From: a virus
Lineage: Duplodnaviria > Heunggongvirae > Uroviricota > Caudoviricetes
Direction: 5' to 3' (one strand)
IMG/VR virus record: IMGVR_UViG_3300031087_000527
Span: 145,384-209,383 of that record
DNA: 64,000 nucleotides
In this document: piece after piece, positions 12,814-57,511 of the stretch
Layout: every line of letters begins with the position of its first letter
Position numbering within the stretch: position 1 is the first letter of the stretch
Program-made: the position numbers and the translations under genes
The notes under the pieces: model-generated
Database searches by the model: none
What the model was told of the DNA's origin: nothing
The model's input: the letters and a program-made list of their open reading frames with translations, nothing else

Positions 12814-14718
12814 ATGACATATTCTGAACGTCTTAATGATATTGCAATCGTAAAGCTGGACACTGAAGGCTTCTCATCACTCGATAGCCGCACTAAACGT
12901 CTGGCTTATCATCTGTCAGAAGCGGGTATGTGGGGGAAAGTGATCGGGCTGACTCAGGGATCAAGCGCTAACCTTATCGTTATTCCTGCACTAATCCATA
13001 TGTATAAACATCTTGATAAAGAAACTGAAGCTTTTAAGCAGGTTCGTGATAGTTTATTTATGCTCTTTGCGCACGGTGGTCTTTATCATACCACAACAGG
13101 TGAAAAACTGACACTGCCTCTGGATAGTGAGCAATTTGATGTATTGTGTTCTAATGTTTACTGTTCATTAGCTGCCTTATCGATTGAAATATTTCTTTTT
13201 GAGAACGATACCTATAATCTACCTTTATACCGCACCGTTCAAAAAGACGGCGTAGATGTGGTTAAGCAGTCTGGTGTTAACTTCTATGCTGGCCTTACCA
13301 CCGAGGAAGTAATTGCTTTTCGCAAAGAAGCCTACCCGAAACATGATAATGATGAGATTCCACCTTACGGATTTAACGAGAAACTCCTAAAAAATCATCT
13401 CACGGGTGAGATTAAACGAGAAGTCATCTTCGCTGATGGTCTTTATGGTCGCTATGTTAAAGAAATCATTAAAGAGCTTAAGCTTGCTCTGAACTACACT
13501 GAAAATGAAAAACAACATGCCTCTATTGAGACACTGATTACCTTCTATGAGACGGGTGATGCTGCTGATTTTGATAAGCACTGTGTAGCGTGGACGCAAG
13601 ATCAGGATAGTTCGATTTATTTCGTAAATGGCTTGATTGAATCTTATAAAGATCCGCTAGGTGTGGCGTGTAACTTTGAGAGTTTGGTTGCGTTTAAAAA
13701 TCCAGCACAGACAGCTAAAGTGAAGCGTATCATTGATAATATCCAGTGGTTTGAGGATAATCTCCCGTTTGATAAGCGCTTTAAGAAAGATAAGGCTGTA
13801 GGGCTATCTGCGAGTTCTATCAATGTTATTTCTATGGCTGGAGAAACCTCTCCTGTGCTGCCTTTAGGGATTAACTTGCCTAACAGCGACTGGATTCGTA
13901 AAAAGTTTGGTTCTAAATCCGTTACGTTGTCTAACGTGGATTCCTCACGTAGTAGCTATGATGTGCCATTAACCAAAGCCTTGTATCTGGATAAATATCA
14001 GGATCTGATTAAGCGTTATGGCAATGAGACGGGCATCCTTCATACGGACTTGCATGAGATTGCTGGTCATGGTTCGGGCAAAGTGCTGGACGGCGTTAAC
14101 AGTGATGTTCTGTCTACGTATTACTCTGTCATTGAGGAATGCCGTGCGGATCTTGTGGCGCTTTACTATATCCCGGATGAGAAGCTAAAAGAGATTGGTG
14201 TGTTTGCTGAGGATGTCAATGTTCGCGATGCGGCAATGGCTAAGTATGTAGCGTATTTCACTAATGGCGCTATCGGTCAGTTGCGCCGTGTGCGTTTTGG
14301 CGCTGATCTGACACAAGCTCACTTCAGAAACCGCCAGGTTATCTCTACATGGTTGCTTGAAAAAGCGAAGCCTGAACAGATGGCGATGGTTGTGAAGGAT
14401 GGTCAGTATTTCATTGAAGTGAATGATCTGGATGGTGTTCGCGTTCTGGTTGGTCAGTTGCTGGCAGAGGTTCAGCGTATTAAATCGGAAGGCGATTTTA
14501 ACGCGGCTAAAGCCCTCGTAGAGACGTATGGCACCAAAGTTAATAGGTTGGTTCATAAAGAGGTGTTGGAGCGTGTGAGTGGCTTAGGATTGGCGACAGT
14601 GGTAGGCTTCATGACGCCGATTCTGACACCTAACGGCGATGATATTGTTATTGAATATCAGGAAGACTTCCTGACTCAGCAGATTGAGTTGTTTGAGAAA
14701 TATTTCCTGAAGAAATAA
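12814..14718 (+). CDS. dipeptidyl-peptidase III-like zinc metallopeptidase (MEROPS M49 family), 634 aa
   Basis: AAAGGAGAT SD. HEIAGHGSGK and EECRAD lie about 40 aa apart, matching the M49 signature pair HELLGHGSGK / EECRAE. Confidence 0.85.
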   Translation: MTYSERLNDIAIVKLDTEGFSSLDSRTKRLAYHLSEAGMWGKVIGLTQGSSANLIVIPALIHMYKHLDKETEAFKQVRDSLFMLFAHGGLYHTTTGEKLTLPLDSEQFDVLCSNVYCSLAALSIEIFLFENDTYNLPLYRTVQKDGVDVVKQSGVNFYAGLTTEEVIAFRKEAYPKHDNDEIPPYGFNEKLLKNHLTGEIKREVIFADGLYGRYVKEIIKELKLALNYTENEKQHASIETLITFYETGDAADFDKHCVAWTQDQDSSIYFVNGLIESYKDPLGVACNFESLVAFKNPAQTAKVKRIIDNIQWFEDNLPFDKRFKKDKAVGLSASSINVISMAGETSPVLPLGINLPNSDWIRKKFGSKSVTLSNVDSSRSSYDVPLTKALYLDKYQDLIKRYGNETGILHTDLHEIAGHGSGKVLDGVNSDVLSTYYSVIEECRADLVALYYIPDEKLKEIGVFAEDVNVRDAAMAKYVAYFTNGAIGQLRRVRFGADLTQAHFRNRQVISTWLLEKAKPEQMAMVVKDGQYFIEVNDLDGVRVLVGQLLAEVQRIKSEGDFNAAKALVETYGTKVNRLVHKEVLERVSGLGLATVVGFMTPILTPNGDDIVIEYQEDFLTQQIELFEKYFLKK

Positions 14719-14728
14719 GATACAGATT

Positions 14729-14750
14729 AAGCCTCTTCGGAGGCTTTTTG
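14729..14750 (+). terminator. rho-independent terminator (GCCTCTTCGGAGGC plus T-run)
   Basis: Identical 14-nt hairpin reused at 15261 and 39858. Confidence 0.7.
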
Positions 14751-14813
14751 TGCTTGCTTTACATGGTTGTTGTCGATATAATCGCGATAATCTTACTTTT
14801 AGGAATCATCATC

Positions 14814-15248
14814 ATGTTGGTAATCAATAAAGACGTGTCGAAAGTGAAAGCAATTGTGCAGAAACAGGCTGAGTATTTAAGAGGTTCAGCCAGTGATAAC
14901 TTCTTTCGTAAGAATCATTACTCGTTTTTTATGACTGATGAATATTTATGTGTATCTATGTTGATTGAGGAGCAGTGGTCAGGTTCTTGCTGGTCAGACG
15001 ATATGGATGAGCCAAAGTATTACGAAGAGAAAACCTCACTGGTCAAAAAAGCAATTCGTGTTTTACTATCTGCGATGCTGCCAAAGAAAAACAACGTTCA
15101 AATTGGTTCTTTGGTTGAGGATGTTTTCGAAAAAATGCGTCGAGATATGCATACTGAATACGGTTATTATGGCAACTACGAAACGACTAAGCGATACACT
15201 ATAAACATTTCGGATGTTTATGATTTATTAGGTGAGGAATTCACATAA
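14814..15248 (+). CDS. hypothetical protein (144 aa)
   Basis: The track ORF from 14748 overlaps the terminator and a TATAAT box. AGGAAT SD before the ATG at 14814. Confidence 0.6.
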   Translation: MLVINKDVSKVKAIVQKQAEYLRGSASDNFFRKNHYSFFMTDEYLCVSMLIEEQWSGSCWSDDMDEPKYYEEKTSLVKKAIRVLLSAMLPKKNNVQIGSLVEDVFEKMRRDMHTEYGYYGNYETTKRYTINISDVYDLLGEEFT

Positions 15249-15260
15249 CATCGAATAAAA

Positions 15261-15284
15261 AGCCTCTTCGGAGGCTTTTTATTT
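15261..15284 (+). terminator. rho-independent terminator (GCCTCTTCGGAGGC plus TTTTT)
   Basis: Same hairpin as 14729. Confidence 0.7.
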
Positions 15285-15352
15285 AATAAAAGAGTTGTTA
15301 TTGTTGTCATAAAATGGTATGATGGCTGTGTTATTTAAAGAGGGTTAAAGTG

Positions 15353-15475
15353 ATGACTGACGTAAAAGAGTTAGTGGCTAAGTTGTTAGAAGACGCAAAA
15401 CGTCTGCAGGAAGTTGAGCCTAATGCGGGAACGGCTAAGCGCATTGAAGAAGCTCAGGAATTTTTAAAATCATAA
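15353..15475 (+). CDS. small ORF (40 aa)
   Basis: AAGAGGG SD. Not in the ORF track because it is shorter than 60 aa. Translates MTDVKELVAKLLEDAKRLQEVEPNAGTAKRIEEAQEFLKS. Confidence 0.4.
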   Translation: MTDVKELVAKLLEDAKRLQEVEPNAGTAKRIEEAQEFLKS

Positions 15476-15512
15476 GCCCTGTAGGGTGAAACCAAATAAA
15501 AGAGGATTTAAC

Positions 15513-15653
15513 ATGTCGGATAATAAAGTAATGACTGAAAAAGAAGTGAACGAGCAATATCAGAAAGATGTTGCTGATTCTAAAAGCTACGGAGACGAAA
15601 TCCGTGCGCAAGTTCGTCGTGATACTGCACTTGAGAAACTGCGCTCAAAATAA
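15513..15653 (+). CDS. small ORF (46 aa)
   Basis: AAGAGGA SD. Translates MSDNKVMTEKEVNEQYQKDVADSKSYGDEIRAQVRRDTALEKLRSK. Confidence 0.45.
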   Translation: MSDNKVMTEKEVNEQYQKDVADSKSYGDEIRAQVRRDTALEKLRSK

Positions 15654-15684
15654 TATAAACTGAATATTCCCAGCCGAGGTGTGT

Positions 15685-15861
15685 ATGTTTTATGAAGGAA
15701 CTGGAGATTATGGTCCTCGCCGCACGGTAGAAGAGCAGAAAATCTATGATCGCTATTCAGAAGAGTCTGTAAAGGCCAAAACGTATGGTGAAGAGTATTG
15801 GGCTAAAGACCGTCGCGATCAGGCTCTGTCTCGTCTTCCATCCTATCAACGTTCTAAATAA
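15685..15861 (+). CDS. small ORF (58 aa)
   Basis: GAGGTG SD. ATG at 15685. Confidence 0.45.
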   Translation: MFYEGTGDYGPRRTVEEQKIYDRYSEESVKAKTYGEEYWAKDRRDQALSRLPSYQRSK

Positions 15862-15870
15862 GGTGAGATA

Positions 15871-16590
15871 ATGTCTGATATTGATGCAGTTCAAAATGTT
15901 CATGTGGCGAAATTCAAAGGCAATATTAATATGTATTGGCCTATGGAAAATGTAGCAATGGATAAAGTTGTGCGTAATGCGGGAAATAAAACATTGACGC
16001 CTGAGCATATTCTGCTTGGTGGTGGTGCGGGTGAGCATTCGGCGCTTGTTATTTATAGTGATGCGGTAGTGCTTCAGACACTGATTTATGACTCATTGTT
16101 TAATACGCCAGAGTCATGGGATGGTCATGATCTTGATGTGGTTGCGTTCTTTAAGAAAAATGAGCAGCTTCATGATAAGTATTCGTATGGCATTGAAAAC
16201 CCAATGTTCGATGCTATTCGTGGTAGTTGGAGTATGGACACAAATCAGTGGCCTTTACAATCATGGGCGAGCTTTATTGATAACCTTGATAAAGATGATT
16301 TACTGTCAGAAGACACTCCTGAGCGCGTAATGATCGATATGCTTGGCGTATTCGTTTTGGAGCAAATGCCGCTGGTATGCTTGGTGGACAACGATATTCG
16401 TGAGATGGCAGAGCTGTATCGTAATAATAAGGCATCGCTGCGTCCTTATATGAAGCAGGAATACATTGATAAACTGCTGAGCTATTTCACTGCGCCAGAG
16501 CGGGGAGAAATGTGTGGAACAATTCATGAAAATGGAGAGACGCGCTGGGGATACAACCTTTCTGCCTGGAAAAAAGATAATAATCAATAA
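15871..16590 (+). CDS. hypothetical protein (239 aa)
   Basis: AAGGTGAG SD 6 nt upstream. Confidence 0.8.
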   Translation: MSDIDAVQNVHVAKFKGNINMYWPMENVAMDKVVRNAGNKTLTPEHILLGGGAGEHSALVIYSDAVVLQTLIYDSLFNTPESWDGHDLDVVAFFKKNEQLHDKYSYGIENPMFDAIRGSWSMDTNQWPLQSWASFIDNLDKDDLLSEDTPERVMIDMLGVFVLEQMPLVCLVDNDIREMAELYRNNKASLRPYMKQEYIDKLLSYFTAPERGEMCGTIHENGETRWGYNLSAWKKDNNQ

Positions 16591-16635
16591 AAGGTATTGT
16601 GCATGATAAAGGAAGCTGCTATAGTGGCTTCATTG

Positions 16636-16852
16636 TCTTCTTAGCTCAGCGGTTAGAGCCGAGGCCGTAGATCACGGTGGTTGCGAGACGAGAAAATATC
16701 TACGTAAGCGATGCGTATCAGTTAAAGTCTGATAAGGCCCCAGCAGGAAGCCTTTAGCTCAATGGCAGAGCCGTGGCGGAGTTGTCCGTGGTCGTGTAGA
16801 TCCTCGTTTTAATAAGCAATGCGCACTGGTTCGAATCCAGTAGAGGACACCA
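16636..16852 (+). ncRNA. 217-nt composite tRNA-like locus: canonical tRNA 3' half whose acceptor partner lies 210 nt upstream, with two D-arm-like modules between
   Basis: 3' end ACTGG-TTCGAAT-CCAGT, AGAGGAC-A-CCA. The only complementary 5' acceptor, GTCTTCT, is at 16636. D-arm copies are TAGCTCAGCGGTTAGAGCC (16643) and TAGCTCAATGGCAGAGCC (16756). GTAGATC heptamer repeated. No standard anticodon arm. Confidence 0.4.
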
Positions 16853-16876
16853 TTATTTCGAAAAGGAAAAGCTGAT

Positions 16877-17134
16877 ATGAGCATGAAAGTTTCTGAATTT
16901 ATTGAATGGTTAAAAACACAGCCTCAAGATGCTGAGGTAATGGTAATTAGCCATACCAGTGGCTCAAGTTATTATGATCAAGGTGGAAATATTCAGGTCG
17001 TTGCCTTTAACCCTGAAGAGTCAGCGCCGGGCAAGTATGATCCTACATTTGAGATGGATGACTTTAGTGGAGATGGCTTTAAGAACTCGCAGTTCTATGG
17101 TCAGAAGCAACTTCTGCTTGGAAGTCATGAGTAA
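16877..17134 (+). CDS. hypothetical protein (85 aa)
   Basis: AAAGGAAAAG SD. Terminator GAAGGGACTACTTTTAGTAGTCCTTTTTTT follows. Confidence 0.7.
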   Translation: MSMKVSEFIEWLKTQPQDAEVMVISHTSGSSYYDQGGNIQVVAFNPEESAPGKYDPTFEMDDFSGDGFKNSQFYGQKQLLLGSHE

Positions 17135-17441
17135 GAGAAGAAGTTATGCGAAGGGACTACTTTTAGTAGTCCTTTTTTTATTTAAAAATCAAAAGCAGAA
17201 TATTATAATGAGCAATAAAAAAGTGCTGACGTGTGCTGACATTTTTGATTACGCAAGCCATTCTCATCATATGAAAGAAGTAAAAGAAAAGCGTGAATCG
17301 CTTAAAATTGAGTTCGCAAGTCTAGCTTGATTTCTACAGGATAAGATTATTCTAAAATAGAGGCAACATTTTGCTTGTGCATGATGTTGTCTTTTGCTAT
17401 ACTTTCTTCATAGAAAGTAATTATGATTAAAGAGGTTGGCG

Positions 17442-17657
17442 ATGTGTAAATCTTTCATGCTTTTTCTGATAAGTCTGTTATATATTATTGGTTTTTTTAA
17501 GCTGGTTGGTTTTCCTTTTGTGCCTTCAGTGGATCATAAAGGTTTAGAGATGCTGGCTTTTGTGTTCTACCTGTTCAGTGTTATTTATGCGGTCTTTTAT
17601 ATTGTGGTATCTCTGTTCACCTTTCGCGTGTCATCAGACGTTGAAGAAAAAAACTAA
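17442..17657 (+). CDS. small membrane protein (two TM helices)
   Basis: AAGAGG SD. Hydrophobic throughout. Confidence 0.55.
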   Translation: MCKSFMLFLISLLYIIGFFKLVGFPFVPSVDHKGLEMLAFVFYLFSVIYAVFYIVVSLFTFRVSSDVEEKN

Positions 17658-17668
17658 GAGGCTTCAAA

Positions 17669-18010
17669 ATGGATAAGTTTATCTCCCCATCAAAAGTTGT
17701 TATTGGTCAACCTCACGCGGCGGTATTTGCCCGTGGTGAGTTCTGCGATAAAGCAACTAACATTCAGTTTCAAGGTCTTAATGAAGAGCAAAAGCTTGCG
17801 GTTAAAGCTGCTGTTGTTTCATCAGATTGCCAAAATACAAAGCCATATATTCAAGGTGATTCCAATGATTGGCTTTTGATAGAGTTCTGGTCATCAGATA
17901 TGGTTGATGTGGCTCATGCCTGCGTTGTGCTTGCGAGAGTGGCAGGTTTGACTGAGGATCAGGTACCAGGCCTTTCTCATCCAGATTTTAAAGGCGTATT
18001 TGAAGTTTAA
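17669..18010 (+). CDS. hypothetical protein (113 aa)
   Basis: AAGAGG SD. Confidence 0.75.
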   Translation: MDKFISPSKVVIGQPHAAVFARGEFCDKATNIQFQGLNEEQKLAVKAAVVSSDCQNTKPYIQGDSNDWLLIEFWSSDMVDVAHACVVLARVAGLTEDQVPGLSHPDFKGVFEV

Positions 18011-18044
18011 ACATTTTTGACAACCACTTCTTCTAAGAGGATAT

Positions 18045-18557
18045 ATGGAAAACTCTTTATTTATTATTCAGCGTATTAATGGTTATGATTACGAAGGTGA
18101 AACCAAAACAATCATAGCGACACGTCATACGACGAAAAAAGCTATCGAAGAAGAAGTTGATCGTCTTAATAATTTCATGGATGGTGTAGAGATGCCAGAG
18201 CCAGGTAGTTCTTCATGGAACTATTTTGATTTTGAAGAGCTTTTTATATCGGCTGAGGGTGAGTATGAAAATTTTTTATTATCCAGCAAGAAAAATACTG
18301 TATTGAATATGGCTGGCTTAAAAAATGATATTAAACGTCGTTTTGATAAGACTTATTCTTATTACATGAGTGGCGAATATCGTTATTCAGATAAAACACT
18401 AGAGTCTTATCTGAAGGAGTCATATTCTCGCTTTCTTTCAGGTGACACGTATTTGTCAGACTTGTTGGATATTGCTGAGGAGCTTCAGCACAAAGGCTTT
18501 ATCAAGTCTGATGTGTCAGTGATCAGGGCATCGTTGTTTGTAGTTAAAGGCAAGTAA
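18045..18557 (+). CDS. hypothetical protein (170 aa)
   Basis: AAGAGGAT SD. Confidence 0.8.
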   Translation: MENSLFIIQRINGYDYEGETKTIIATRHTTKKAIEEEVDRLNNFMDGVEMPEPGSSSWNYFDFEELFISAEGEYENFLLSSKKNTVLNMAGLKNDIKRRFDKTYSYYMSGEYRYSDKTLESYLKESYSRFLSGDTYLSDLLDIAEELQHKGFIKSDVSVIRASLFVVKGK

Positions 18558-18638
18558 GTCCTTGTGAATGAGTAGAAATGCTCATTCACAATATATATAT
18601 AGCGTGATCAAAAAAACACGCGGTTGAACGAAAATAGC

Positions 18639-18677
18639 AAAAAAAGAGTTGTACTTAAAGATCCACTTTGCTATGAT
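18639..18677 (+). promoter_or_regulatory. sigma70-like promoter (A-tract, GAGTTGTACT, 17 nt, TATGAT)
   Basis: Conserved tRNA promoter motif upstream of tRNA-Arg(TCT). Confidence 0.6.
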
Positions 18678-18704
18678 TGTTTTATCGAGAGAGAACAATA
18701 TATT

Positions 18705-18781
18705 GCGTCCTTAGCTCAGCAGGATAGAGCAACGGCCTTCTAAGCCGTAGGTCATAGGTTCGAATCCTATAGGACGCGCCA
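18705..18781 (+). tRNA. tRNA-Arg (anticodon TCT)
   Basis: Acceptor GCGTCCT/AGGACGC. D arm GCTC-AGCAGGATA-GAGC. Anticodon stem ACGGC/GCCGT with loop CTTCTAA. T arm ATAGG-TTCGAAT-CCTAT. G-CCA. Confidence 0.9.
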
Positions 18782-18806
18782 CAAAAATAAATCTCACGAG
18801 GTCGAT

Positions 18807-19139
18807 ATGAAAATGTTTAAACGTTTTATTTTTGTGATGCTAATGGCATGTAGCTTTTCGAGCCTGGCTGACTATTATGAGTGTGATATTAGCAATGGCT
18901 CGGTAGGTTTTTGTGGATCGTGGGCGCAAGAAAAAAGTTATCCGGTTCAGGATCAGAGCGGAACATTTCATGACTGTGATATCAATAACGGGTCTGTGGG
19001 TTTCTGTGGTGGATGGAGCCAACGACAAAGTTTTCCGGTAAAGCAGTCAGATGGATCTTACAGTAAATGCGATATCAATAATGGCTCAGTGGGTTTCTGT
19101 GCTGGTTGGTATCAAGGCAAAGCATATATTCAAAAATAA
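18807..19139 (+). CDS. secreted small protein with three 35-aa Cys-pair repeats (CDInNGSVGFCgGW)
   Basis: Signal peptide MKMFKRFIFVMLMACSFSSLA. Internal triple repeat. Paralogue of 19194. Confidence 0.8.
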   Translation: MKMFKRFIFVMLMACSFSSLADYYECDISNGSVGFCGSWAQEKSYPVQDQSGTFHDCDINNGSVGFCGGWSQRQSFPVKQSDGSYSKCDINNGSVGFCAGWYQGKAYIQK

Positions 19140-19193
19140 AAAGTAAAGTCGGCTTTTGCCAAAAATTAATATAGTGATTCTTACGAGGCTGAA

Positions 19194-19526
19194 ATGGGAA
19201 TGTTTAAACGTTTTATATTAGTGATGTTAATGGCATGTAGTTTTTCAAGTTTTGCTGATTATTATGAATGCCAACTTGTGAGCGGTAGGCCTACTTCATG
19301 TGGCTCATGGGCAGATGCTCAAAACTATCCAGTGAAGCAAGAAGATGGTTTTTATAAGGATTGTAGCATTACGAGTGGAAGTGCGTCGATGTGTAGTGGC
19401 TGGAGTGATCGGGATACATTTCCTGTAAAAGATGATAGCGGTTTTTATCAAACTTGTTCACTGGTAAGTGGCAGGGCGACTACATGTAGCGGTTGGTATG
19501 ATGGTAAGGCTATTGTTGAACCATAA
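19194..19526 (+). CDS. secreted small protein, paralogue of 18807 (three Cys-pair repeats)
   Basis: Signal peptide MGMFKRFILVMLMACSFSSFA. Repeats C.L.SGR.T.C.GW. Confidence 0.8.
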   Translation: MGMFKRFILVMLMACSFSSFADYYECQLVSGRPTSCGSWADAQNYPVKQEDGFYKDCSITSGSASMCSGWSDRDTFPVKDDSGFYQTCSLVSGRATTCSGWYDGKAIVEP

Positions 19527-19529
19527 AAA

Positions 19530-19571
19530 GTAAAAAAAGCTGTTGTACTGAAAGAAAATAGTAGGTATAAT
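19530..19571 (+). promoter_or_regulatory. sigma70-like promoter (A-tract, CTGTTGTACT, 17 nt, TATAAT)
   Basis: Upstream of tRNA-Met. Confidence 0.6.
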
Positions 19572-19584
19572 AGCTTTACAAAAC

Positions 19585-19660
19585 GGCCCCTTAGCTCAGT
19601 GGTTAGAGCAGGCGACTCATAATCGCTTGGTCGCTGGTTCAAGTCCAGCAGGGGCCACCA
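19585..19660 (+). tRNA. tRNA-Met (anticodon CAT; elongator type, or Ile2 if lysidinylated)
   Basis: Acceptor GGCCCCT/AGGGGCC with G1-C72 paired. D arm GCTC-AGTGGTTA-GAGC. Anticodon stem GGCGA/TCGCT with loop CTCATAA. T arm GCTGG-TTCAAGT-CCAGC. A-CCA. Confidence 0.85.
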
Positions 19661-19755
19661 GCATTCATACTCTCTTTGAATGTATTTGATTGAAAGGTTT
19701 TTTACTGCTATAAAAGTTTGTTTAATAAAAAGGAAGCCACGAACTTCCTTTTCAT

Positions 19756-19842
19756 GCCTCAGTGGTGAAATAGGTAGACACAAGAGATTCAAAATCTCTC
19801 GCCTTCACGGGCGTACCAGTTCGATTCTGGTCTGAGGCACCA
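19756..19842 (+). tRNA. tRNA-Leu (anticodon CAA, type II)
   Basis: Acceptor GCCTCAG/CTGAGGC. D arm GTG-AAATAGGTAGA-CAC. Anticodon stem AGAGA/TCTCT with loop TTCAAAA. 15-nt variable hairpin. T arm ACCAG-TTCGATT-CTGGT. Preceded by the hairpin GGAAGCCACGAACTTCC plus TTTT. Confidence 0.85.
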
Positions 19843-19860
19843 ATAAAAGAGGGAAATACT

Positions 19861-20253
19861 ATGTTAACCCAAGAAAATGTAGCATTGATTCATAAAGCGA
19901 TTCCGTTATATGCTGAAAAAGTAAGGCTGGAGTCTGATATTGTTAGTGTGATGATTGATGATTCTGTGGAGCTTAAAGAGCGTGCGGAGCAGAATCAGAG
20001 AGTGCTTAAGGTGATTGCTCAAAAAGTGAATATCGCCTTTGAGAACCACGAAAGACCTCAGCTTGAAGGTCGTGAGCGCGTTCTGCTTATCGGAATGATG
20101 AGTTTTCTGATCAGAGAGATTGAAGCGCGTCAGATGATAAACGTAGCAGGTCATGACAATGTTGTTGCGGATGTTTTCAATCAAAAGATCGAGCGGAAGA
20201 TTAAAGAAATCAGAGGAATGATGGCTGATTTCAAAAAAGAAAAAATTTTATAA
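19861..20253 (+). CDS. hypothetical protein (130 aa)
   Basis: AAAGAGGGAAA SD. Confidence 0.8.
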   Translation: MLTQENVALIHKAIPLYAEKVRLESDIVSVMIDDSVELKERAEQNQRVLKVIAQKVNIAFENHERPQLEGRERVLLIGMMSFLIREIEARQMINVAGHDNVVADVFNQKIERKIKEIRGMMADFKKEKIL

Positions 20254-20345
20254 AAAGTGCTTGTGCAGCAAGAGAGAAGTGGATATAATGAGTCTCTAAG
20301 CTGAACAAAGCAATGAATATTAACGAGATAGAGGAGGTTAGATAA

Positions 20346-20465
20346 AAGGACTGGTTAGTGTCCAGTTCTCGATAATAGTAGCTAAGATCATTCGCATACC
20401 CTTAAGTCGAATGTAGCCGGATACGTAAAAGTGTATCTGATTATCGGTAGAGCACTAGATATTTT
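20346..20465 (+). ncRNA. candidate small RNA, repeat copy A (about 120 nt)
   Basis: TATAAT at about 20284 upstream. Hairpins GGACTGG..CCAGTTC and GGATACgtaaaagtGTATC. T-run at the 3' end. Copy B carries compensatory substitutions. Confidence 0.4.
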
Positions 20466-20562
20466 ATTCTTATATTATGATCTTATATTGATGATGAGCT
20501 TTGAGGCTGCTATGAGCCGTAAATCATAGAGTGGATTTAACTAACAGAGGGGGAGAATAGAT

Positions 20563-20682
20563 ATTAGGACTGGTTGGTGTCCAGTTCTCAGTGATAGTAG
20601 CTAAGACCATTCGCATAACCTTAAGTCGAATGTAGCTGGACACGTAAAAGTGTGTCTGATCACTGGTAGAGCACAAGATATT
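20563..20682 (+). ncRNA. candidate small RNA, repeat copy B (about 85% identical to A)
   Basis: GGACACgtaaaagtGTGTC: the T>C and A>G changes relative to copy A preserve the pairing. No ORF. Confidence 0.4.
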
Positions 20683-20945
20683 TAAAAACTTATTGATAAT
20701 TTTATATGATGAATATTTAGGAATAGGCGTCTACAGCCGTAAAGTAGAAAGCAATATTTGAACTCGTCTTGCTGATGCTATTAGGCGGATTGAGGTGGAT
20801 ATGAAGCCACAAATAATAGCAGAGAGCCACCTTCGGGTGGCTTTTCTTGTTTTAAAGAGAAAGTTTTGACAAAAGAAGCGCCGTAAGGTTTAATATAAGA
20901 ACAAATCAGCATCCTGTTTTAATATAAACTAAATAGGAGAAAAAT

Positions 20946-21266
20946 ATGAAAGAGTTAATCAAAAAAGAGTTAATGTTCATTGAAGAAAATGCTGATTTGC
21001 TGAGAAATAACTATGATCCTGTAATTTTTGATTTTGAAGGACATGAGCCAAAGTATTTGTGTATAATGGAGTTCGCGCCATTCTCTATGCAAATAAACGT
21101 CCGCATAGAACCAGAACTGTGTTTTTTGTTTTCTGAGAAAGGAAAAAGCAAGGTGGTAATAAGCAGGCAGTCCAGAGAAATGGATGAAGAAGAAGAAAAA
21201 ATCTTCAAAAGTTTCATTGGAAAAGTCTACGAGAGATCAAAAAATCAACATGATTCATGGTATTAA
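20946..21266 (+). CDS. hypothetical protein (106 aa)
   Basis: AATAGGAGAAAAA SD. Confidence 0.8.
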   Translation: MKELIKKELMFIEENADLLRNNYDPVIFDFEGHEPKYLCIMEFAPFSMQINVRIEPELCFLFSEKGKSKVVISRQSREMDEEEEKIFKSFIGKVYERSKNQHDSWY

Positions 21267-21336
21267 AACAAGAAAGGGGGCCAAGCCTCCTTTTTTATTG
21301 CATATTGATCAAAAAGTCTTCAGTTAGTTAAAAATA

Positions 21337-21377
21337 GTAAAAAAAGTGTTGTACTGAAAGGTGGTCTTTGCTATTAT
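21337..21377 (+). promoter_or_regulatory. sigma70-like promoter (A-tract, GTGTTGTACT, 17 nt, TATTAT)
   Basis: Upstream of the second tRNA-Arg(TCT). Confidence 0.55.
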
Positions 21378-21416
21378 TACTACATCGAAACGCGGTGTAG
21401 AGCGTAAGATAATATT

Positions 21417-21493
21417 GCTTCCTTAGCTCAGCAGGATAGAGCAACGGCCTTCTAAGCCGTAGGTCATAGGTTCGAATCCTATAGGATGCGCCA
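21417..21493 (+). tRNA. tRNA-Arg (anticodon TCT), second copy with T3:T70 acceptor mismatch
   Basis: Body identical to 18705. Acceptor GCTTCCT/AGGATGC has one mismatch. Confidence 0.75.
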
Positions 21494-21707
21494 GTTATGC
21501 GAGCCTACCTCTCTGTATAACATAAGTGATTATTGTGCTGTGTTTGAAACCGTGATCAATCGGGGCTGAGCTGATTTAAGAAAGATGCCTAATATTGCTT
21601 TCTAAGCTGAGTCTAAAATAATTGATAAGCCTTCATTTCACTATTTAAAACTTGTATAGGCGGCGAAACAAGTTAACTTAAAAAAGGAAGTTGCACCTTC
21701 CTTTAAT

Positions 21708-21793
21708 GCCTCAGTGGTGAAATCGGTAGACACAAGGGATTTAAAATCCCTCGGCTTAGCGCTGTACCAGTTCGAGTCTGGTCTGAGGCACCA
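21708..21793 (+). tRNA. tRNA-Leu (anticodon TAA, type II)
   Basis: Acceptor GCCTCAG/CTGAGGC. D arm GTG-AAATCGGTAGA-CAC. Anticodon stem AGGGA/TCCCT with loop TTTAAAA. T arm ACCAG-TTCGAGT-CTGGT. A-CCA. Preceded by the hairpin GGAAGTTGCACCTTCC plus TTT. Confidence 0.85.
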
Positions 21794-21865
21794 AACAATA
21801 TACGCGCTGCGTAAATTGAGTAGGAGATATGTCATGCCAACGTATTCTCTTACTGATCGATTAAT

Positions 21866-21955
21866 GGTGAAGTGGTAGAGAGGCTTAATACACTGTCCTG
21901 CTAAGACAGAGTGTGGGAAACCGCACCGAGGGTTCGAATCCCTCCTTCACCGCCA
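21866..21955 (+). tRNA. tRNA-Ser (anticodon GCT, type II)
   Basis: Acceptor GGTGAAG/CTTCACC. D arm GTA-GAGAGGCTTAA-TAC. Anticodon stem CTGTC/GACAG with loop CTGCTAA. 18-nt variable arm. T arm GAGGG-TTCGAAT-CCCTC. G-CCA. Confidence 0.85.
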
Positions 21956-27430: not shown

Positions 27431-28426
27431 ATGTCACATTTTACCGTTATTGTTGCTGGTGATGTTAATCTTAAGAAAGCATTAGCGCCTTTCGAGGAAC
27501 AGTCGTCCGATCCTGAAAACTCACCTTATTTTGAATTCGAAAATAAGAGTGAGTCTTCTCAAGAGCGAGAGGATTACAAAAACAAAACTACGCAAATCGT
27601 TGAGCTGGATGGTGTAAAATACCATCGTTCTGATGATGTTGTTCGCAGATTTGAAAAGTCTATCAAAAGCGAGAGTTCACCTTTCGGTGAGACAGTGCTT
27701 GAACTTCCTGAAGGTGCTAGACTTTATGAGGGTGCAGTTTCAGAAATCTATCCAACATTTGAAAGCTATCTTAGAGATTATTGTGGTTATGGATATTCAG
27801 AAGAACTTGATGCTTATGGATATTGGCATAACCCTAATGCAAAATGGGATTGGTATCAGGTAGGCGGTCGCTGGACAGGATATTTTAAAGGTAAACTGGG
27901 TGTGGGTGGAGAACAAGGCCGTCCTGGTCTGATGACGGAAGCTGCTGAGGCAGGTCGCTATGATGTTATCCGTTTGAAAGATATTGACTTTGAAGGTATG
28001 GAGGCTGAGGCTATTGCTGAGGCAAACGCAACCTATGATAAGATTGAGTCTATTTTGAAAGGCCGTCAATATCCGTCATGGACAGAGATCAGGGAAAAGC
28101 ATGGTGCGGATATTGATGCAGCAAGAAATGAATATCATAATCATCCGGTTGTTAAGGATTTTAATGAAGCTCGTTTTGATTTTTGGGGTGATTTTTATGA
28201 AATCTTTGGCAATAGCCGTGAGGAATATGTTGAGAGACAGCGTAAATCAATCATCACGCCGTTTGCTTTCCTGAAGGATGGTGTATGGTCTGAAAAGGGA
28301 CAAATGGGCTGGTTTGGTATGGCGATGGATGAAAAAGCTCAGAAAGACTGGAATGATGAGTTCTACAATATGCTGCGTGGCCTTCCTGAAGACACCCTGT
28401 TAACAGCAGTTGACTGTCATATCTAA
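27431..28426 (+). CDS. hypothetical protein (331 aa), family sharing the C-terminal motif ...TAVDCHI with 32567..33061
   Basis: AGGAGAG SD. Paralogous N-terminus (MSHFTVIVAG) and C-terminus (FAFLKDGVWS...LTAVDCHI). Confidence 0.85.
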   Translation: MSHFTVIVAGDVNLKKALAPFEEQSSDPENSPYFEFENKSESSQEREDYKNKTTQIVELDGVKYHRSDDVVRRFEKSIKSESSPFGETVLELPEGARLYEGAVSEIYPTFESYLRDYCGYGYSEELDAYGYWHNPNAKWDWYQVGGRWTGYFKGKLGVGGEQGRPGLMTEAAEAGRYDVIRLKDIDFEGMEAEAIAEANATYDKIESILKGRQYPSWTEIREKHGADIDAARNEYHNHPVVKDFNEARFDFWGDFYEIFGNSREEYVERQRKSIITPFAFLKDGVWSEKGQMGWFGMAMDEKAQKDWNDEFYNMLRGLPEDTLLTAVDCHI

Positions 28427-29740: not shown

Positions 29741-29836
29741 ATCATTATCTAAAAAAGAGAGCGCCTTGCAGGGCGCTTTTTTATACATTAAGTATCGTGC
29801 TTTTTTCTTTCATGTGGTGAAACAGTTAAAATTATA

Positions 29837-29850
29837 GCAACGAACGCAAC
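29837..29850. repeat. left inverted repeat GCAACGAACGCAAC flanking tnpB
   Basis: Exact reverse complement of GTTGCGTTCGTTGC at 31409..31422. Confidence 0.6.
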
Positions 29851-29916
29851 ATATTAAACATGTTTGATTTTTCTTCTTTTTTATTATAGTATCCTTTTAT
29901 AAATTACGGGGATATT

Positions 29917-31377
29917 ATGACGCAGACTTACTTTATTAAACACGATTATGACAGAACAGTTCAGCCGTTCTGGAATGAACAGTGTCTTAAAATATCTCAA
30001 AACCTTTTTCTCCCCTGCACCGAAAATAATATCCCTAATTTTAAAACTCATTACCTCTCTTCTTTGATCCGTAAGCTTACACCCGTTCATTCTTATCACT
30101 TTCCTTTATTCTTTAAATCTTATGTTATGTCTGCGCCTGATATTGTGGTTAAAGCCGTAAGGAAAGTGCGCTTTTATTTTACCTCGACTGAACAAAGACT
30201 TAAATATGAGCAAATGATGATGGTTGCTCGCAGAGCCTACAATCTTGCGGTTGATATGTGTAATAACAGAGAATTTATCGATGAGCAGGGGAAACCTGTT
30301 GATATCAGAATTCCCATCAGAGATAAAGTAAAAAAAGAAAGTGCTGAAAATAATTATGTTTTTGACACTAATGTCTGCGATCAGGCTGTCAGGATAGCTA
30401 AGTCTGAGTTTATCACTCTCTGTAAAAATAACAAAAAGAAGAAGAATACAACATTATTCACGAGTTTCTCACGACTAGGCTTCAAAAGCCGTAAAGACAA
30501 AAAACAGACCTTTTCCCATCCCCGGATGGGAAAAGAGGGTTCCGTCTGTATAAAATCGTTGGGAAGCATCAGGCTGACGGAAAAGCTGCCTGATGAATGC
30601 TATGGCAAAAATGTTGAGGTAACAATGGAGTATGGCAGATGGTTCATCTGCGTCCAGAAAAATATAGAGATAAAAGGAAACCGTTTAGATTGTTCCGAAA
30701 GCCAAGGGCCAAATAAAACGGTTTCTGAAAAAGAAGTGAAAGTGATTGCTCTTGATCCGGGAAGCAGGACGTTTTTAACAGGATTCAGCGAGAAAGAAGT
30801 TATCGTTTATGGTAAGGATTATTCTATAAAATGCTTACTACCATTGGCAAAGAAGATGCGTGAGCTGTATTCTTTGCGTGAGAGGTTAAAGAAGCATGAG
30901 CTATACAGAAAGGAAAGCCTGGATAATCCGCAGTGGATAAACGATACGTTTAGGCATATAGAAAACAGCCTGAATAGGCTGTCCTGTAAGCGTCAGGATC
31001 TTGTTAATCATCTGCACAGGACTGTAGTTTATGATATAGTGATGAGCTACGATGTGATTTATCTTCCTGATTTCGAAACCAAGTCTATGGTAAAGACTAA
31101 GGGGAGAAGAATAGGCCGTAAAGCTGTTCATAACATGCTTTCTCTGAGTCATTATATTTTTAAGGAATTTCTGCTGTGGACAGCAAAGAAATACGGTAAG
31201 GAAGTCATTATCGTTAACGAGAGTTATACGAGTAAAACCCAAAGCTGGAACGGAGTGGTAAATGAAAAGCTGGGATCATCGAGGTTGATGAAAGACGGCA
31301 AAAGAATAATAAACAGAGATATCAATGGTGCAAGGAATATTTACCTGAAGCACATATCTCAGTTAACTAACATTTAG
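29917..31377 (+). CDS. tnpB: TnpB-like RuvC nuclease (IS200/IS605 OrfB family), zinc-finger cysteines absent; alternative start 30127 gives 416 aa
   Basis: N-terminal VRKVRFYFTSTEQ (KFRLYPT.EQ-like). RuvC-I VIALDPGSRTF. RuvC-II YLPDFETKSM. RuvC-III NRDINGARNI. Where CxxC...CxxC is expected the sequence reads TSKTQSWNG...MKDGKRI with no cysteine. Confidence 0.85.
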   Translation: MTQTYFIKHDYDRTVQPFWNEQCLKISQNLFLPCTENNIPNFKTHYLSSLIRKLTPVHSYHFPLFFKSYVMSAPDIVVKAVRKVRFYFTSTEQRLKYEQMMMVARRAYNLAVDMCNNREFIDEQGKPVDIRIPIRDKVKKESAENNYVFDTNVCDQAVRIAKSEFITLCKNNKKKKNTTLFTSFSRLGFKSRKDKKQTFSHPRMGKEGSVCIKSLGSIRLTEKLPDECYGKNVEVTMEYGRWFICVQKNIEIKGNRLDCSESQGPNKTVSEKEVKVIALDPGSRTFLTGFSEKEVIVYGKDYSIKCLLPLAKKMRELYSLRERLKKHELYRKESLDNPQWINDTFRHIENSLNRLSCKRQDLVNHLHRTVVYDIVMSYDVIYLPDFETKSMVKTKGRRIGRKAVHNMLSLSHYIFKEFLLWTAKKYGKEVIIVNESYTSKTQSWNGVVNEKLGSSRLMKDGKRIINRDINGARNIYLKHISQLTNI

Positions 31378-31437
31378 GTGCTTCGCCTTAGCCGGAACTG
31401 CGAATGCTGTTGCGTTCGTTGCGGGTTTAATGAAGAG
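31375..31437 (+). repeat. tnpB 3'-flanking conserved element (right-end or omega-RNA-like), copy 1
   Basis: Starts at the tnpB stop codon: TAGGTGCTTCGCCTTAGCCGGAACTGCGAATGCTGTTGCGTTCGTTGCGGGTTTAATGAAGAG. Contains the right inverted repeat. Related copies at 43312 and 37870. Confidence 0.6.
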
Positions 31438-31529: not shown

Positions 31530-32432
31530 TTAGTTATCGAGAGAGATAACGGGCATAGTAGGCCTGTCAGAAACGATAACTACCATGAGTTTTTCCACAA
31601 TGCGTTTCTTCTCAGCATCCTCAAAAGACACACCGATCTCACTTTGGATGTTAGCAATAGCATCCTTCACGGTTAATACAGCAGCATCAACAATGGCGCG
31701 GCGACTCTCTGCCATTTTTTCAGCTTGCTGACGCATCAGCATAGGCTGAGCGATTTCTGGCGCATAAGCGATCTTAGTAATGCTGGCGCTGATAATAACC
31801 ACACCGATTTCTTTTAAACGTGTATTAATGCTTTCAATCAGCTTGGTTGAAAACGAACCTAAGTTGTTGCTCAGGGTTTCTTCATCAGCCACATTGCTGT
31901 CAAATGCATGTTGAGTAACAATCGTTCTCAGTTCACTCTCGCTGGCGTTGCGAATAAAATCATCTGGCTTCTCAGCATTATAATGGAACGGAGCAGCCTG
32001 TTCAACACGGTAGTTGACCACCATAGAGACATTCAAGGGAATACCCTTTTTGTCATTGATTTTGGTTTCCTGAGTTTCAAAGGTATTAATCTTGGTGCTG
32101 ATTTTCTCAAAGGAGAAGAAAGGATTGACGAATGTAACACCTTCACCCATAAGTGTGCCTCGGTATTTACCTAAGAAGCTGGCAACCACTTTCTGATTGG
32201 GGGAGATAATGATAAAGCTGTTAAAGAAGAAAATAGCAGCAATGATGCCAGAAATAAAAGCCGTAGAACCATACAGAATAGAGATTTCTTCACGGAATTC
32301 ATTATAGCCATAAGGCACCTGAACCTGAGCGTGCATAACAGCGTAGACGGTAATCGCAATGAAGATAAGTGTCAGCACAACGCCAAGATAGGCTGCACTC
32401 AGATTGGTTTTTTCATCTTTCAAAATATTCAT
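31530..32432 (-). CDS. SPFH/band-7 (stomatin/prohibitin-like) membrane protein
   Basis: Minus-strand ATG preceded by GGAG. N-terminal TM helix, then an SPFH-like core (...VASFLGKYRGTLMGEGVTFVNPFF...NVSMVVNYRV...). Confidence 0.8.
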   Translation of the reverse strand: MNILKDEKTNLSAAYLGVVLTLIFIAITVYAVMHAQVQVPYGYNEFREEISILYGSTAFISGIIAAIFFFNSFIIISPNQKVVASFLGKYRGTLMGEGVTFVNPFFSFEKISTKINTFETQETKINDKKGIPLNVSMVVNYRVEQAAPFHYNAEKPDDFIRNASESELRTIVTQHAFDSNVADEETLSNNLGSFSTKLIESINTRLKEIGVVIISASITKIAYAPEIAQPMLMRQQAEKMAESRRAIVDAAVLTVKDAIANIQSEIGVSFEDAEKKRIVEKLMVVIVSDRPTMPVISLDN

Positions 32433-32566
32433 TATGGCAAAGCTCCTGATTAGTAAATAGAGACAGCATTATAGCGACTCTTATGGTGCTTTTCAATGTA
32501 AATATGACTAAGAAACTTGATAAAGTGAAGAAAATGCGTGAAAATAAAATAAAAAAGGAAAACGAT

Positions 32567-33061
32567 ATGCATTATGCTCTAATGGTAGTTTTAGAAAAAG
32601 ACATTGTAAAACAAATGGAAAAGTTCAAAGAAGCTGAGGATAATCCTGAATCAAAATGGGATAACTATGGATTAGGTCGCCGTTTCAGAAGCTACTTCTC
32701 TAAAAAGGATGGCACAAACTTTTGCGTATCTAAGGTCTGCGAAATCGACATAGAAAAAATGAAGGCGGAAATGATAGAAGTCGCTAAGAAAGAGTATGGC
32801 ATTTTTGAGGTGATAAACTTTGAAAGCGAAGAAAGAAAGCGAGAAGCTATTATTAATATGTTAGGTTCTTACATGACAGAAGAAGATTATATCAGCCAGC
32901 GATCAAGAGAGTTTTTAACACCTTATGCTTTCCTTCGTAGCGGAGAGTGGTATGATGCTAAACGCTCAGGATCGCATGAGAAGTGGATAGAAGATTTTCA
33001 AAAAATATTTGAAGACCTTCCTCCTGAAACTGAGTTGGCGGTTTTTGACTGTCATATTTAA
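32567..33061 (+). CDS. hypothetical protein (164 aa), paralogue of 27431..28426 (C-terminal ...LAVFDCHI)
   Basis: AAAGGAAAAC SD before the ATG at 32567. The N-terminus MHYALMVVLEKD aligns with MSHFTVIVAGDV. Confidence 0.7.
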   Translation: MHYALMVVLEKDIVKQMEKFKEAEDNPESKWDNYGLGRRFRSYFSKKDGTNFCVSKVCEIDIEKMKAEMIEVAKKEYGIFEVINFESEERKREAIINMLGSYMTEEDYISQRSREFLTPYAFLRSGEWYDAKRSGSHEKWIEDFQKIFEDLPPETELAVFDCHI

Positions 33062-33067
33062 AAAGTG

Positions 33068-33095
33068 CTTGCTATTGATATCTTGTTGGTATAAT
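33068..33095 (+). promoter_or_regulatory. promoter with extended -10 (TTGctaTTGATA ... TGgTATAAT)
   Basis: Drives the ORF-free transcript 33102..33374. Confidence 0.45.
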
Positions 33096-33101
33096 ATGGC
33101 T

Positions 33102-33374
33102 ATGTTGATGCAGACTGGAACGTGTTAAACGGGTATCAATGTCGGGCGAGAGCCTCCCAGCCTGTGAGCGGGATATTGAAAGAGTAGGCCAGATTTTGAG
33201 ATAACTTTATTTTGCCAGTGCCGAGAATGAGGCCCTAAAAGCACGTCGGACGTTGAGCCGGAAGAGCGGAAGTCATTCACCGCAATCGCTATGGGAAGCG
33301 AGAGAGTGTACGAATAATCACGGGCAAACCTAAAGTTATCTCAGAACAAATAAGACGCTTCGGCGTCTTTTTTG
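33102..33374 (+). ncRNA. candidate structured ncRNA of about 270 nt, bounded by its own promoter and terminator
   Basis: No ORF longer than 11 codons. Locally GC-rich. 12-bp long-range pairing GAGATAACTTTA (33198) with TAAAGTTATCTC (33331). Ends with AAGACGCTTCGGCGTCTTTTTTG. Confidence 0.45.
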
Positions 33375-33430
33375 TTGTGCATAAACCATCGTTGTGTTAA
33401 AATCATGTTCTACTTTAAAAAGGAATCCTC

Positions 33431-33673
33431 ATGAAAGAGAAAATCATGTTAGTGTTAGGCCTGATGTGTCTCATCGGTGGTGTAATTGTCAGTTTTCAGA
33501 TATTTCCTGAGTCATTCAAGCAAGTAAATGACATCCTCGCATCTTTATTAATGAGTGTTGCAGGCGTAGCATTAGGCGCAACGTCTTTCGGTATAGTATT
33601 GGTTTCTCAAGCCTTTTTTGATGCTTTTGTGAGCGATATGAAATCCAATATAGCGTCGTCAAAAACATCCTAA
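33431..33673 (+). CDS. small membrane protein (two TM helices)
   Basis: AAGGAAT SD. Confidence 0.7.
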   Translation: MKEKIMLVLGLMCLIGGVIVSFQIFPESFKQVNDILASLLMSVAGVALGATSFGIVLVSQAFFDAFVSDMKSNIASSKTS

Positions 33674-33796
33674 GTGTTTGAATATATGGCGCATTTTAAA
33701 TATCTAAGACCTATTTATTGCTTGATTGTCAGGTGCTAAAGGTATATAATGCTTCTTATTGAAAGTGATGAAATCTGATAACTTATCGAGGTAAAA

Positions 33797-34099
33797 ATGA
33801 AAATCTCTAAGCTGAAACCTGGTGATGTTGTTTTCTCTGTTGAAAAGACAAAGATGGGTAATACTACGCTTAAAACCGTTTCTGTATTCCGCGTATCTAT
33901 TAAAGAAGTTCATGAGACACATGTTATTGCTTCATGGAATGGCAATAAACCTCGTCGTTTTGGTCTGGCGGCTGTGAGTAAGTGGAAAGAAAAGGAACCT
34001 GTAAGAATCCAGATTCGTCCTTGCTATTACCGTCTGGCAACAAAAGAAGAAATTGCTCAGATGGAAAAAGAAAAGGCTGAGAAAAAGCAGATTAACTAA
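33797..34099 (+). CDS. hypothetical protein (100 aa)
   Basis: GAGG SD. Terminator AAAGGAGGCAAACCTCCTTTTG. Confidence 0.75.
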   Translation: MKISKLKPGDVVFSVEKTKMGNTTLKTVSVFRVSIKEVHETHVIASWNGNKPRRFGLAAVSKWKEKEPVRIQIRPCYYRLATKEEIAQMEKEKAEKKQIN

Positions 34100-34151
34100 T
34101 CATAAAGGAGGCAAACCTCCTTTTGTATCACTTTATGTTTGAGGAAATATC

Positions 34152-34604
34152 ATGGCTACGTTTACGCCGATTGAGCGTCCGGTTATCAAGAATCAGCTTG
34201 AGTATACGCTTCAGGAATGTCATACGGATGTTAATGAACATGACGCCTGGGCGGGACCTGTTGTTTACATTGCCGATGAAGTCTCAACAAAAGAAGAAGC
34301 TGAGATTTTCCTGCGCTGCCTGCAGATTTGTATTGAGAAGTTCAATGGATCACGCACACGTTATGGTGAGCCTTACGACTCGGTAGATTTTGAAGCAGAA
34401 GAGTTCGAAGATGAATTTGATGAAATTGAGCATGATACCTCAGATAATGTCATTCGTTTCTCAAAAGATGGGAAAGATTATTTTATCGGTTATGATTTTG
34501 ATATGGGGATGCCTACCGAAGATGCGCGATACTTCGCGGGTGTGAAGTTTGTTAGTGCTATTTTCTACGATGAAAATGGCAACATGTTTAATGTAGAAAT
34601 GTAA
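34152..34604 (+). CDS. hypothetical acidic protein (150 aa)
   Basis: GAGGAAAT SD. Terminator GGCTGCCTCTGGGCGGCC plus T-run. Confidence 0.8.
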   Translation: MATFTPIERPVIKNQLEYTLQECHTDVNEHDAWAGPVVYIADEVSTKEEAEIFLRCLQICIEKFNGSRTRYGEPYDSVDFEAEEFEDEFDEIEHDTSDNVIRFSKDGKDYFIGYDFDMGMPTEDARYFAGVKFVSAIFYDENGNMFNVEM

Positions 34605-57502: not shown

Positions 57503-57511
57503 GAGGCTAAA

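Follow-up and report, generated by a model that had tools for sequence, protein, structure and literature searches.

A predicted SraL-type small RNA with a large inserted domain at a phage locus

An RNA locus between two phage genes

This report concerns a putative small RNA (sRNA) encoded by a tailed phage. It lies in a window of 64 kb, which is the whole stretch of DNA that we analysed (IMG/VR record IMGVR_UViG_3300031087_000527, positions 145,384 to 209,383) and which is found inside the 186.8-kb metagenomic contig ENA ERZ27247428 k141_128539. At the locus the gene p192, the RNA and the gene p80 follow each other, all on the + strand. An original prediction, made from the DNA letters and a list of open reading frames (ORFs), had proposed an independently transcribed, structured, non-coding RNA at this place. 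The pairing in seven alleles, the conservation of the locus and its identity in Rfam now support this proposal. The RNA and its promoter are laid out as follows.

33069 to 33095, + strand: promoter, with the −35-like TTGCTA at 33069-33074, a spacing of 15 nt and the extended −10 element TGgTATAAT at 33087-33095
33102 to 33375, + strand: predicted sRNA of about 274 nt; the 5′ end is estimated from the spacing to the −10 element and from the start of the Rfam sraL model at 33104, the 3′ end from the U-tract of the terminator
33105 to 33139, + strand: helix P1 of the SraL-type core (33105-33111 with 33133-33139), enclosing a CUGGAAC motif and a small apical hairpin
33141 to 33172, + strand: core hairpins H1 (33144-33147 with 33152-33155, GNRA-like loop) and H2 (33156-33161 with 33168-33172)
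33173 to 33194, + strand: single-stranded linker AUAUUGAAAGAGUAGGCCAGAUUUU, unpaired in the consensus fold and homologous to the GAAAG..CC.GA linker of SraL
33195 to 33345, + strand: inserted domain of about 147-151 nt, with the closing stem 33195-33209 with 33331-33345, which contains a 12-bp repeat
33211 to 33219 with 33320 to 33328, + strand: inner helix of the insert
33241 to 33244 with 33306 to 33309, + strand: junction stem of the insert
33220 to 33233, 33246 to 33261, 33266 to 33283, 33286 to 33301 and 33312 to 33319, + strand: hairpins of the insert
33346 to 33375, + strand: AGAACAAAUAA, which is A-rich and pairs with the U-tail, followed by the hairpin of the terminator (GACGC-UUCG-GCGUC) and a U6 tail

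The evidence for a folded RNA comes from comparison. Look-ups by identical protein, made for both flanking genes and for their homologues, yielded 18 syntenic loci with seven distinct intergenic alleles. For these alleles RNAalifold predicts 79 base pairs, none of which is broken and four of which are changed on both sides with the pairing kept. Counted formally, all of the 553 cells are paired (553/553, 100%), whereas control structures slid by 1-3 columns reach 37-47% and contain zero compensatory pairs. There are 28 variable columns; 11 of them lie in pairs, where no change is disruptive, and unpaired columns vary twice as often as paired ones. One pair of P1 is G.U, A-U or G-C among the phage alleles, and in H1 a C-G pair is compensated to U-A. 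The alleles form about two groups, and three of the four compensatory pairs therefore count as single events.

The one-sided changes (A to G and C to U) all create G.U pairs on the + strand, each of which would read as an A.C mismatch on the opposite strand. Because one-sided changes are of this G.U type only, and because promoter and terminator have the matching polarity, the + strand is fixed as the strand of the RNA. Measured against the more divergent alleles, identity is 91-92% for the RNA, 90-97% for the promoter and 97% for the terminator, as compared with 74-93% for the neighbouring genes and 80-87% for the neighbouring spacers. In conservation the RNA equals the adjacent genes and exceeds ordinary spacers. 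The contig L020 is uninformative in this respect because the whole block 32420-34400 is 99-100% identical there.

The extended −10 element TGgTATAAT is present as originally described. A scan with a consensus promoter passed over it, since the −35-like TTGCTA lies at a spacing of just 15 nt. The promoter is nevertheless supported by its position about 7 nt upstream of the conserved 5′ helix, by its conservation among the alleles and by the −10 element which the plasmid and Escherichia coli homologues (see below) carry at the same relative position. The strong terminator was found too: a stem at 33352-33369 is followed by a T-run (z = −5.0 against shuffles), and its helix extends to 33342-33358/33363-33379. 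A GC content of 0.45-0.52 in the region against 0.30-0.40 in the flanks bears out the enrichment that had been noticed.

The claim that no ORF exceeds 11 codons, by contrast, does not hold. There are ORFs of 21, 21 and 26 codons on the + strand, among them an ATG ORF at 33139-33204, and one of 51 codons on the − strand, which starts with GTG (33125-33280). We do not regard these ORFs as coding because they are unconserved and a 1-nt indel among the alleles falls inside them. No tRNA-like or tmRNA-like feature was found at the locus.

The 12-nt inverted repeat is perfect and lies at 33198-33209/33331-33342 with 121 nt between the arms; none would be expected by chance (0 expected). It does enclose a helical domain, as had been suggested. 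It is not, however, the main helix of a wholly new RNA, for it closes an insertion within a known sRNA family.

Relationship to SraL and to plasmid RNAs

At curated thresholds Rfam reports nothing at the locus in the window. A permissive local scan of the window allele gave sraL (RF01408) with 37.7 bits (E = 7.9e-7, 33104-33214), which is the only meaningful Rfam hit at the locus. Six sister alleles score 39.3-41.1 bits and thus pass the gathering score of 39, so that the family is also recovered at the curated threshold. As positive controls for the model E. coli ryjA reached 153 bits and the Leclercia sequence 139 bits.

We then scored an alignment of 13 sequences (phage, plasmid and chromosomal cores) against a hand-written structure of 21 pairs. 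Pairing amounts to 95.2%, and 11 of the 21 pairs are compensatory; slid controls give 38-47%. P1 reads UCAGCAC/GUGCUGA in the plasmid form and UUGAUGC/GCAUCAA in the phage form; five of its seven pairs are different, and pairing is still 100%. P1 encloses the CNGGAAC motif typical of SraL, here conserved as CUGGAAC. The two adjacent core hairpins with the GAAAG linker are present as well; H1 and H2 show family-wide covariation and carry the family motifs GUCGGG..CCUCC..AGCGGGAUA. A 3-bp helix which encloses H1 and H2 is paired at two of three positions in the phage RNA as aligned, and an alternative GGC partner lies 5 nt downstream.

The phage RNA thus shares many features with SraL/RyjA, the chromosomal RNA of Enterobacteriaceae described by RF01408. 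These are P1 at the very start, CNGGAAC, the GUCGGG-GNRA-CCUCC hairpin, the ..GC-loop-AGCGGGAUA hairpin, a GAAAG-rich linker, an A-rich stretch with ACAAA, a partly paired U-tail of the terminator and the organisation as a stand-alone gene with its own promoter. There are also clear differences. In SraL, which has about 130-140 nt, the linker leads straight into the terminator, whereas the phage RNA has about 274 nt and is twice as long because a 147-nt domain is inserted in the linker. The apex of P1 has about 30 nt in SraL but is a short hairpin in the phage RNA. The promoter of SraL was reported to be RpoS-dependent (PMC3753932), whereas the phage RNA has a strong extended −10 promoter of the sigma-70 type. 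Finally, SraL is encoded convergently with soxR, or on plasmids with a YjaZ-like gene, and the phage RNA has neither context.

The insert is located between ...CCAGAUUUU and the CAGAACAAAUAA-terminator segment. Its junction stem encloses three further hairpins. Two of the compensatory pairs lie in the insert, the changes in its closing stem give G.U pairs only, and it folds with z = −3.0 against shuffles. It has no counterpart in any plasmid or chromosomal sraL RNA that we aligned, and no other copy was seen among the sequences compared. Against Rfam, at E up to 10, it gave no family match and only weak hits driven by the terminator, and its invariant motifs were not found in viral contigs.

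Blastn searches of plasmids uncovered sraL-type RNAs which are not annotated. They are located as follows.

L050, 210 to 344: plasmid sraL-type RNA
L051, 5001 to 5134: plasmid sraL-type RNA
L052, 1659 to 1792: plasmid sraL-type RNA
L046 to L049, 2494 to 2632: plasmid sraL-type RNAs
L053, about 4001 to 4160: plasmid sraL-type RNA

The copies on Vibrio plasmids of about 80 kb (p48/10, pE7G, p0908 and one of V. parahaemolyticus) score 58-64 bits, and those on small ColE1-type plasmids of Serratia, Dickeya and Enterobacter 85-92 bits. A Pseudomonas plasmid carries a more divergent copy. The plasmid RNAs are the closest sequences to the phage core; overall identity is 65-70% and rises to 72-80% in the two core hairpins. 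Identity of the core to the chromosomal forms is 54-57%. Like the phage RNA they have a short apex of P1, and AGCC(A/U)GUGAGCGGGAUA is identical, as are GGCCAGA in the linker and the approach CAG.AACAAA to the terminator. They differ from it by their length of 130-140 nt and the lack of the insert. The higher identity to the plasmid forms argues that the homology is real and that the phage RNA is a copy of the mobile-element lineage. From the sequence comparison we conclude that it belongs to the SraL family, as a divergent member which bears an insert, and that it is of the plasmid lineage.

In every plasmid examined the RNA is convergent with, and abuts, a YjaZ-like gene of about 162 codons, whose product (P162) is annotated as a hypothetical protein. 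This linkage spans Vibrio, Pseudomonas, Dickeya, Enterobacter and Serratia, including a 3.3-kb plasmid of Serratia marcescens. P162 is a homologue of YjaZ, and in E. coli yjaZ and sroH have the same convergent layout. It is assigned to PF27200 in precomputed Pfam data, and a second gene usually lies just upstream of the P162 gene. P162 may have a RelE-like toxin fold; no relative in the Protein Data Bank was found by sequence and Foldseek gave no significant hit. In the literature on yjaZ and sroH we found nothing useful.

Proposed function and competing explanations

SraL is a ProQ-dependent sRNA which represses tig, protects the rho mRNA from premature termination and pairs with the leaders of these mRNAs (PMC3753932, PMC6582626, PMC9977716). 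In stationary-phase Salmonella it makes up about half of ProQ's ligands or an even larger share (PMC8136791). ProQ-specific RNAs carry immediately 5′ of the terminator an A-rich stretch which is paired to the U-tail and works against Hfq (PMC7367173). Plasmids and phages commonly carry FinO/ProQ proteins and the RNAs that go with them (PMC9977716).

The phage RNA matches this published signature, as AACAAAUAA is the A-rich stretch before the terminator and is paired to the U-tail. The plasmid and E. coli forms match it likewise, and the layout of ACAAA plus terminator is common to phage, plasmid and E. coli SraL. In being highly structured and in ending with an intrinsic terminator whose A-rich stretch pairs with the U-tail, the phage RNA resembles sRNAs of the ProQ/FinO class such as RaiZ and FinP. 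Its binding to such a chaperone is a prediction from this signature, and no FinO-domain gene lies in the window. The signature of the terminator and the precedent of SraL therefore favour a stable, chaperone-bound, trans-acting riboregulator. With due reserve we lean towards this reading, namely that the locus encodes an independently transcribed, structured phage sRNA with a SraL core and an insert, which would be bound by a chaperone and would act in trans.

Whereas fold, strand, family relationship, insert and terminator layout are shown, the mechanism is our proposal. The RNA would be made from the extended −10 promoter of the sigma-70 type during infection. A ProQ/FinO-type chaperone, provided by the host or encoded elsewhere in the phage genome, would then bind and stabilise it via the terminator, as is the case for SraL. 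In trans the exposed linker or the loops could base-pair with host or phage mRNAs; the likeliest seed region is, in our view, the linker at 33173-33194. The inserted domain might add stability or an extra binding surface.

Several points weigh against this proposal. The 37.7 bits of the window allele are just under the gathering score, and the terminator segment of the Rfam model is force-fitted on the phage RNA. With the apex of P1 reduced, the target sites of SraL itself may not be retained. All alleles come from one narrow phage clade, and no sraL-type hit was obtained within 10 kb in relatives whose copy of a conserved neighbouring protein is 63% and 53% identical. The thermodynamic signal is weak, with z = −1.5 for the whole RNA and z = +0.8 for the 5′ core, and for the insert the fold of the minus strand is the better one (z = −4.9). 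The promoter motif TGNTATAAT is not enriched in the window (9 seen against 5.4 +/- 2.6 expected), and both ends of the transcript are placed from sequence. Among the 90 ORFs of the window there is no gene for a ProQ/FinO-domain protein or for Hfq. A length-limited target scan of the 218 translation-initiation regions in the 64 kb showed no outlier besides the trivial self-antisense match, and unconstrained duplex prediction with the E. coli tig and rho leaders led to meaningless full-length hybrids.

A role as a CsrA sponge was rejected. The six GGA motifs in about 275 nt are close to what the composition lets expect, and a hit to rsmX is driven by the terminator.

The first alternative is that the orphan RNA is a decoy or an antitoxin mimic, which neutralises or mis-regulates a YjaZ-like module of plasmids or the host during infection. 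There are phages that counter an abortive-infection toxin with a pseudo-antitoxin RNA, for example the pseudo-ToxI of phage phiTE. As in that case, the phage carries a divergent copy of a plasmid RNA that is coupled to a protein, and carries it without the partner. The plasmid-type core, the constant linkage of RNA and P162 and the shared layout of yjaZ-sroH fit this idea, and so does the window, which has the RNA but no P162 gene (a P162 HMM found nothing in the window and the phage loci). The window, however, covers just 64 kb, while the phage genome has at least 187 kb, and P162 could lie elsewhere. Moreover P162 has no match in PADLOC, its toxicity and its control by the RNA are purely conjectural, and the 147-nt insert is left unexplained. 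The comparison with pseudo-ToxI is also limited by the large extra domain of the phage copy and by the fact that the plasmid module as a toxin-antitoxin or defence system is a conjecture. A classical type I antitoxin would show complementarity to the mRNA of an adjacent small toxin; here the RNA and p80 stand in tandem and do not overlap. We regard a decoy as unlikely.

The other alternatives turn on the neighbouring genes, of which p80 is the closest downstream. It is preceded by a second promoter.

33375 to 33403, + strand: promoter of the extended −10 type ahead of p80, with TTGTGC at 33375-33380, a 17-nt spacer and TGtTAAAAT ending at 33403
33431 to 33673, + strand: p80, coding for a predicted two-helix membrane protein of 80 aa

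In the phage locus L040 the homologue of p192 is directly followed by the homologue of p100 with a gap of 118 nt, and both the RNA and p80 are lacking. RNA and p80 therefore form one accessory cassette of about 730 nt. This linkage to a membrane-protein gene, rather than to a YjaZ-like gene, sets the phage RNA apart from the plasmid RNAs. For p80 no family matches were found. Complementarity between p80 and the RNA is not notable, and the translation-initiation region of p80 ranks 50th of 218 for predicted hybridisation.

The RNA could therefore be thought of as a cis-acting leader, that is, a riboswitch or attenuator which controls read-through into p80. Both are on the same strand and are gained or lost as one cassette with a terminator in between, and the large, junction-rich insert resembles an aptamer. 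Yet the homologous sraL RNAs stand alone and are convergent with the neighbouring gene, and there is no match to a riboswitch family in Rfam. The terminator is very stable and locked by the pairing of A-rich stretch and U-tail, with no evident competing antiterminator. In addition p80 has its own extended −10 promoter. That the downstream gene has a promoter of its own had already been stated in the original prediction; by eye this promoter is plausible, although the consensus scan did not list it. It starts directly after the sRNA terminator, and changes among the alleles are confined to its spacer. A leader function appears rather improbable to us.

Still less can be said for an element which works as DNA, such as an inverted repeat bound by a protein, a site of replication or packaging, or a recombination hotspot. 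The long inverted repeat, a minus strand which folds at least as well as the plus strand, and the position within a mosaic block that was apparently exchanged recently would fit. The one-sided G.U changes are, however, A.C mismatches on the other strand and would be G-T mismatches in a DNA hairpin, and the homology to a known transcribed sRNA, with promoter and terminator of matching polarity, speaks for RNA. We consider a DNA element very unlikely.

Hardly credible, finally, is an RNA partner of a mobile or defence gene (a TnpB guide RNA or retron msr-msd RNA) or a small-protein gene, to which a TnpB-like ORF (29917-31377) 1.7 kb upstream, a flanking inverted repeat resembling the a1/a2 repeats of retrons and the short ORFs of the region might point, because relatives without the TnpB segment (~29826-31433) keep the RNA, none of the 90 ORFs in the window was recognised as a reverse transcriptase, and the short ORFs are unconserved and frame-shifted among the alleles. 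A TnpB omega RNA was rejected on the further grounds that the RNA lies beyond a gene on the opposite strand and does not travel with tnpB, and a retron RNA also because the neighbouring genes are unrelated.

Genomic neighbourhood and wider meaning

A contig of 227 kb, near-identical or closely related to the phage, was found within the assembly of a Serratia sp. Serratia is therefore the most probable host. The phage is of the jumbo T4-like type. Annotated relatives that come nearest to it, at about 35% identity of their proteins, are myoviruses of this type of Enterobacterales, Vibrio and Aeromonas, among them CBB, GAP32, Serratia phage BF and KVP40. Searches for the RNA in annotated phages by blastn, with the locus, the RNA alone or a plasmid RNA as query, gave no homologue; with E. 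coli ryjA as query, the matches were all to bacterial DNA or to small fragments that had been entered as phage records. Scans of viral contigs with core and insert motifs gave nothing. A validated pattern for the core, TATCCYGCTCACN{14,26}CCGRN{15,40}TTCCRGT, had no true match in viral contigs and one chance hit in a coding sequence of high GC content.

Few ORFs of the window have a match in Pfam, and several match phage-only PHROG families of unknown function. The Pfam matches of the 90 ORFs are not what one would expect of a phage; among them are a methyl-accepting chemotaxis signalling domain, a PilS/N-methyl protein resembling type IV pilin, ankyrin repeats, a 2Fe-2S ferredoxin, peptidase M49, an SPFH/Band 7 protein and the N-terminal domain of GmrSD. 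The scan was done in batches which report the matches and not the individual ORF behind each. Thirteen tRNA genes lie in several clusters at 2693-21952, as is typical of large virulent phages. At 55182-61830 six successive + strand ORFs of 350-368 aa resemble a tandem array of paralogues, the first of which has no PHROG match.

Just upstream of the RNA, p192 (192 aa, 32483-33061) is about 24% identical to the C-terminal part of a 331-aa protein encoded 5 kb upstream (27431-28426). The two are paralogues and both match phrog_10079; no relatives of p192 were found in viral contigs. The TnpB-like ORF mentioned above codes for 486 aa with a Cas12f1-like TNB domain. Its segment of about 1.6 kb is missing from related phage contigs, which argues for a recent insertion of an element of the IS200/IS605 type into this phage. 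The block 32420-34400, which comprises p192, the RNA, p80, p100 and the start of p150, is bordered in the comparison with L020 by flanks of only about 50-88% identity. This pattern suggests that the block of 2 kb was recently exchanged by recombination between related phages.

The plasmid data allow a wider speculation, which we consider doubtful. SraL-type RNAs might primarily be parts of mobile modules made up of an sRNA and a convergent YjaZ-like, possibly RelE-fold, protein. Chromosomal SraL, and perhaps yjaZ-sroH, would then be domesticated forms, and the phage would have taken the RNA half alone and fused a 147-nt domain to it in order to disable or take over such modules or the host's ProQ pool. 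If true, this would be an RNA-based counter-measure of a new type.

To our knowledge lytic phages have rarely been shown to carry homologues of core bacterial regulatory RNAs. The phage copy of SraL suggests that phages can tap the regulatory layer of ProQ ligands, with trigger factor and Rho among its targets, and the 147-nt insert would be a natural example of a new structured module grafted onto an sRNA scaffold. The sraL family is not confined to enterobacterial chromosomes, but is common and unannotated on ColE1-type plasmids and on larger plasmids of Vibrio and Pseudomonas. The linkage of sraL and YjaZ on plasmids may in the end matter more than the phage RNA, as it gives a starting point for testing where SraL came from and what YjaZ and SroH do.
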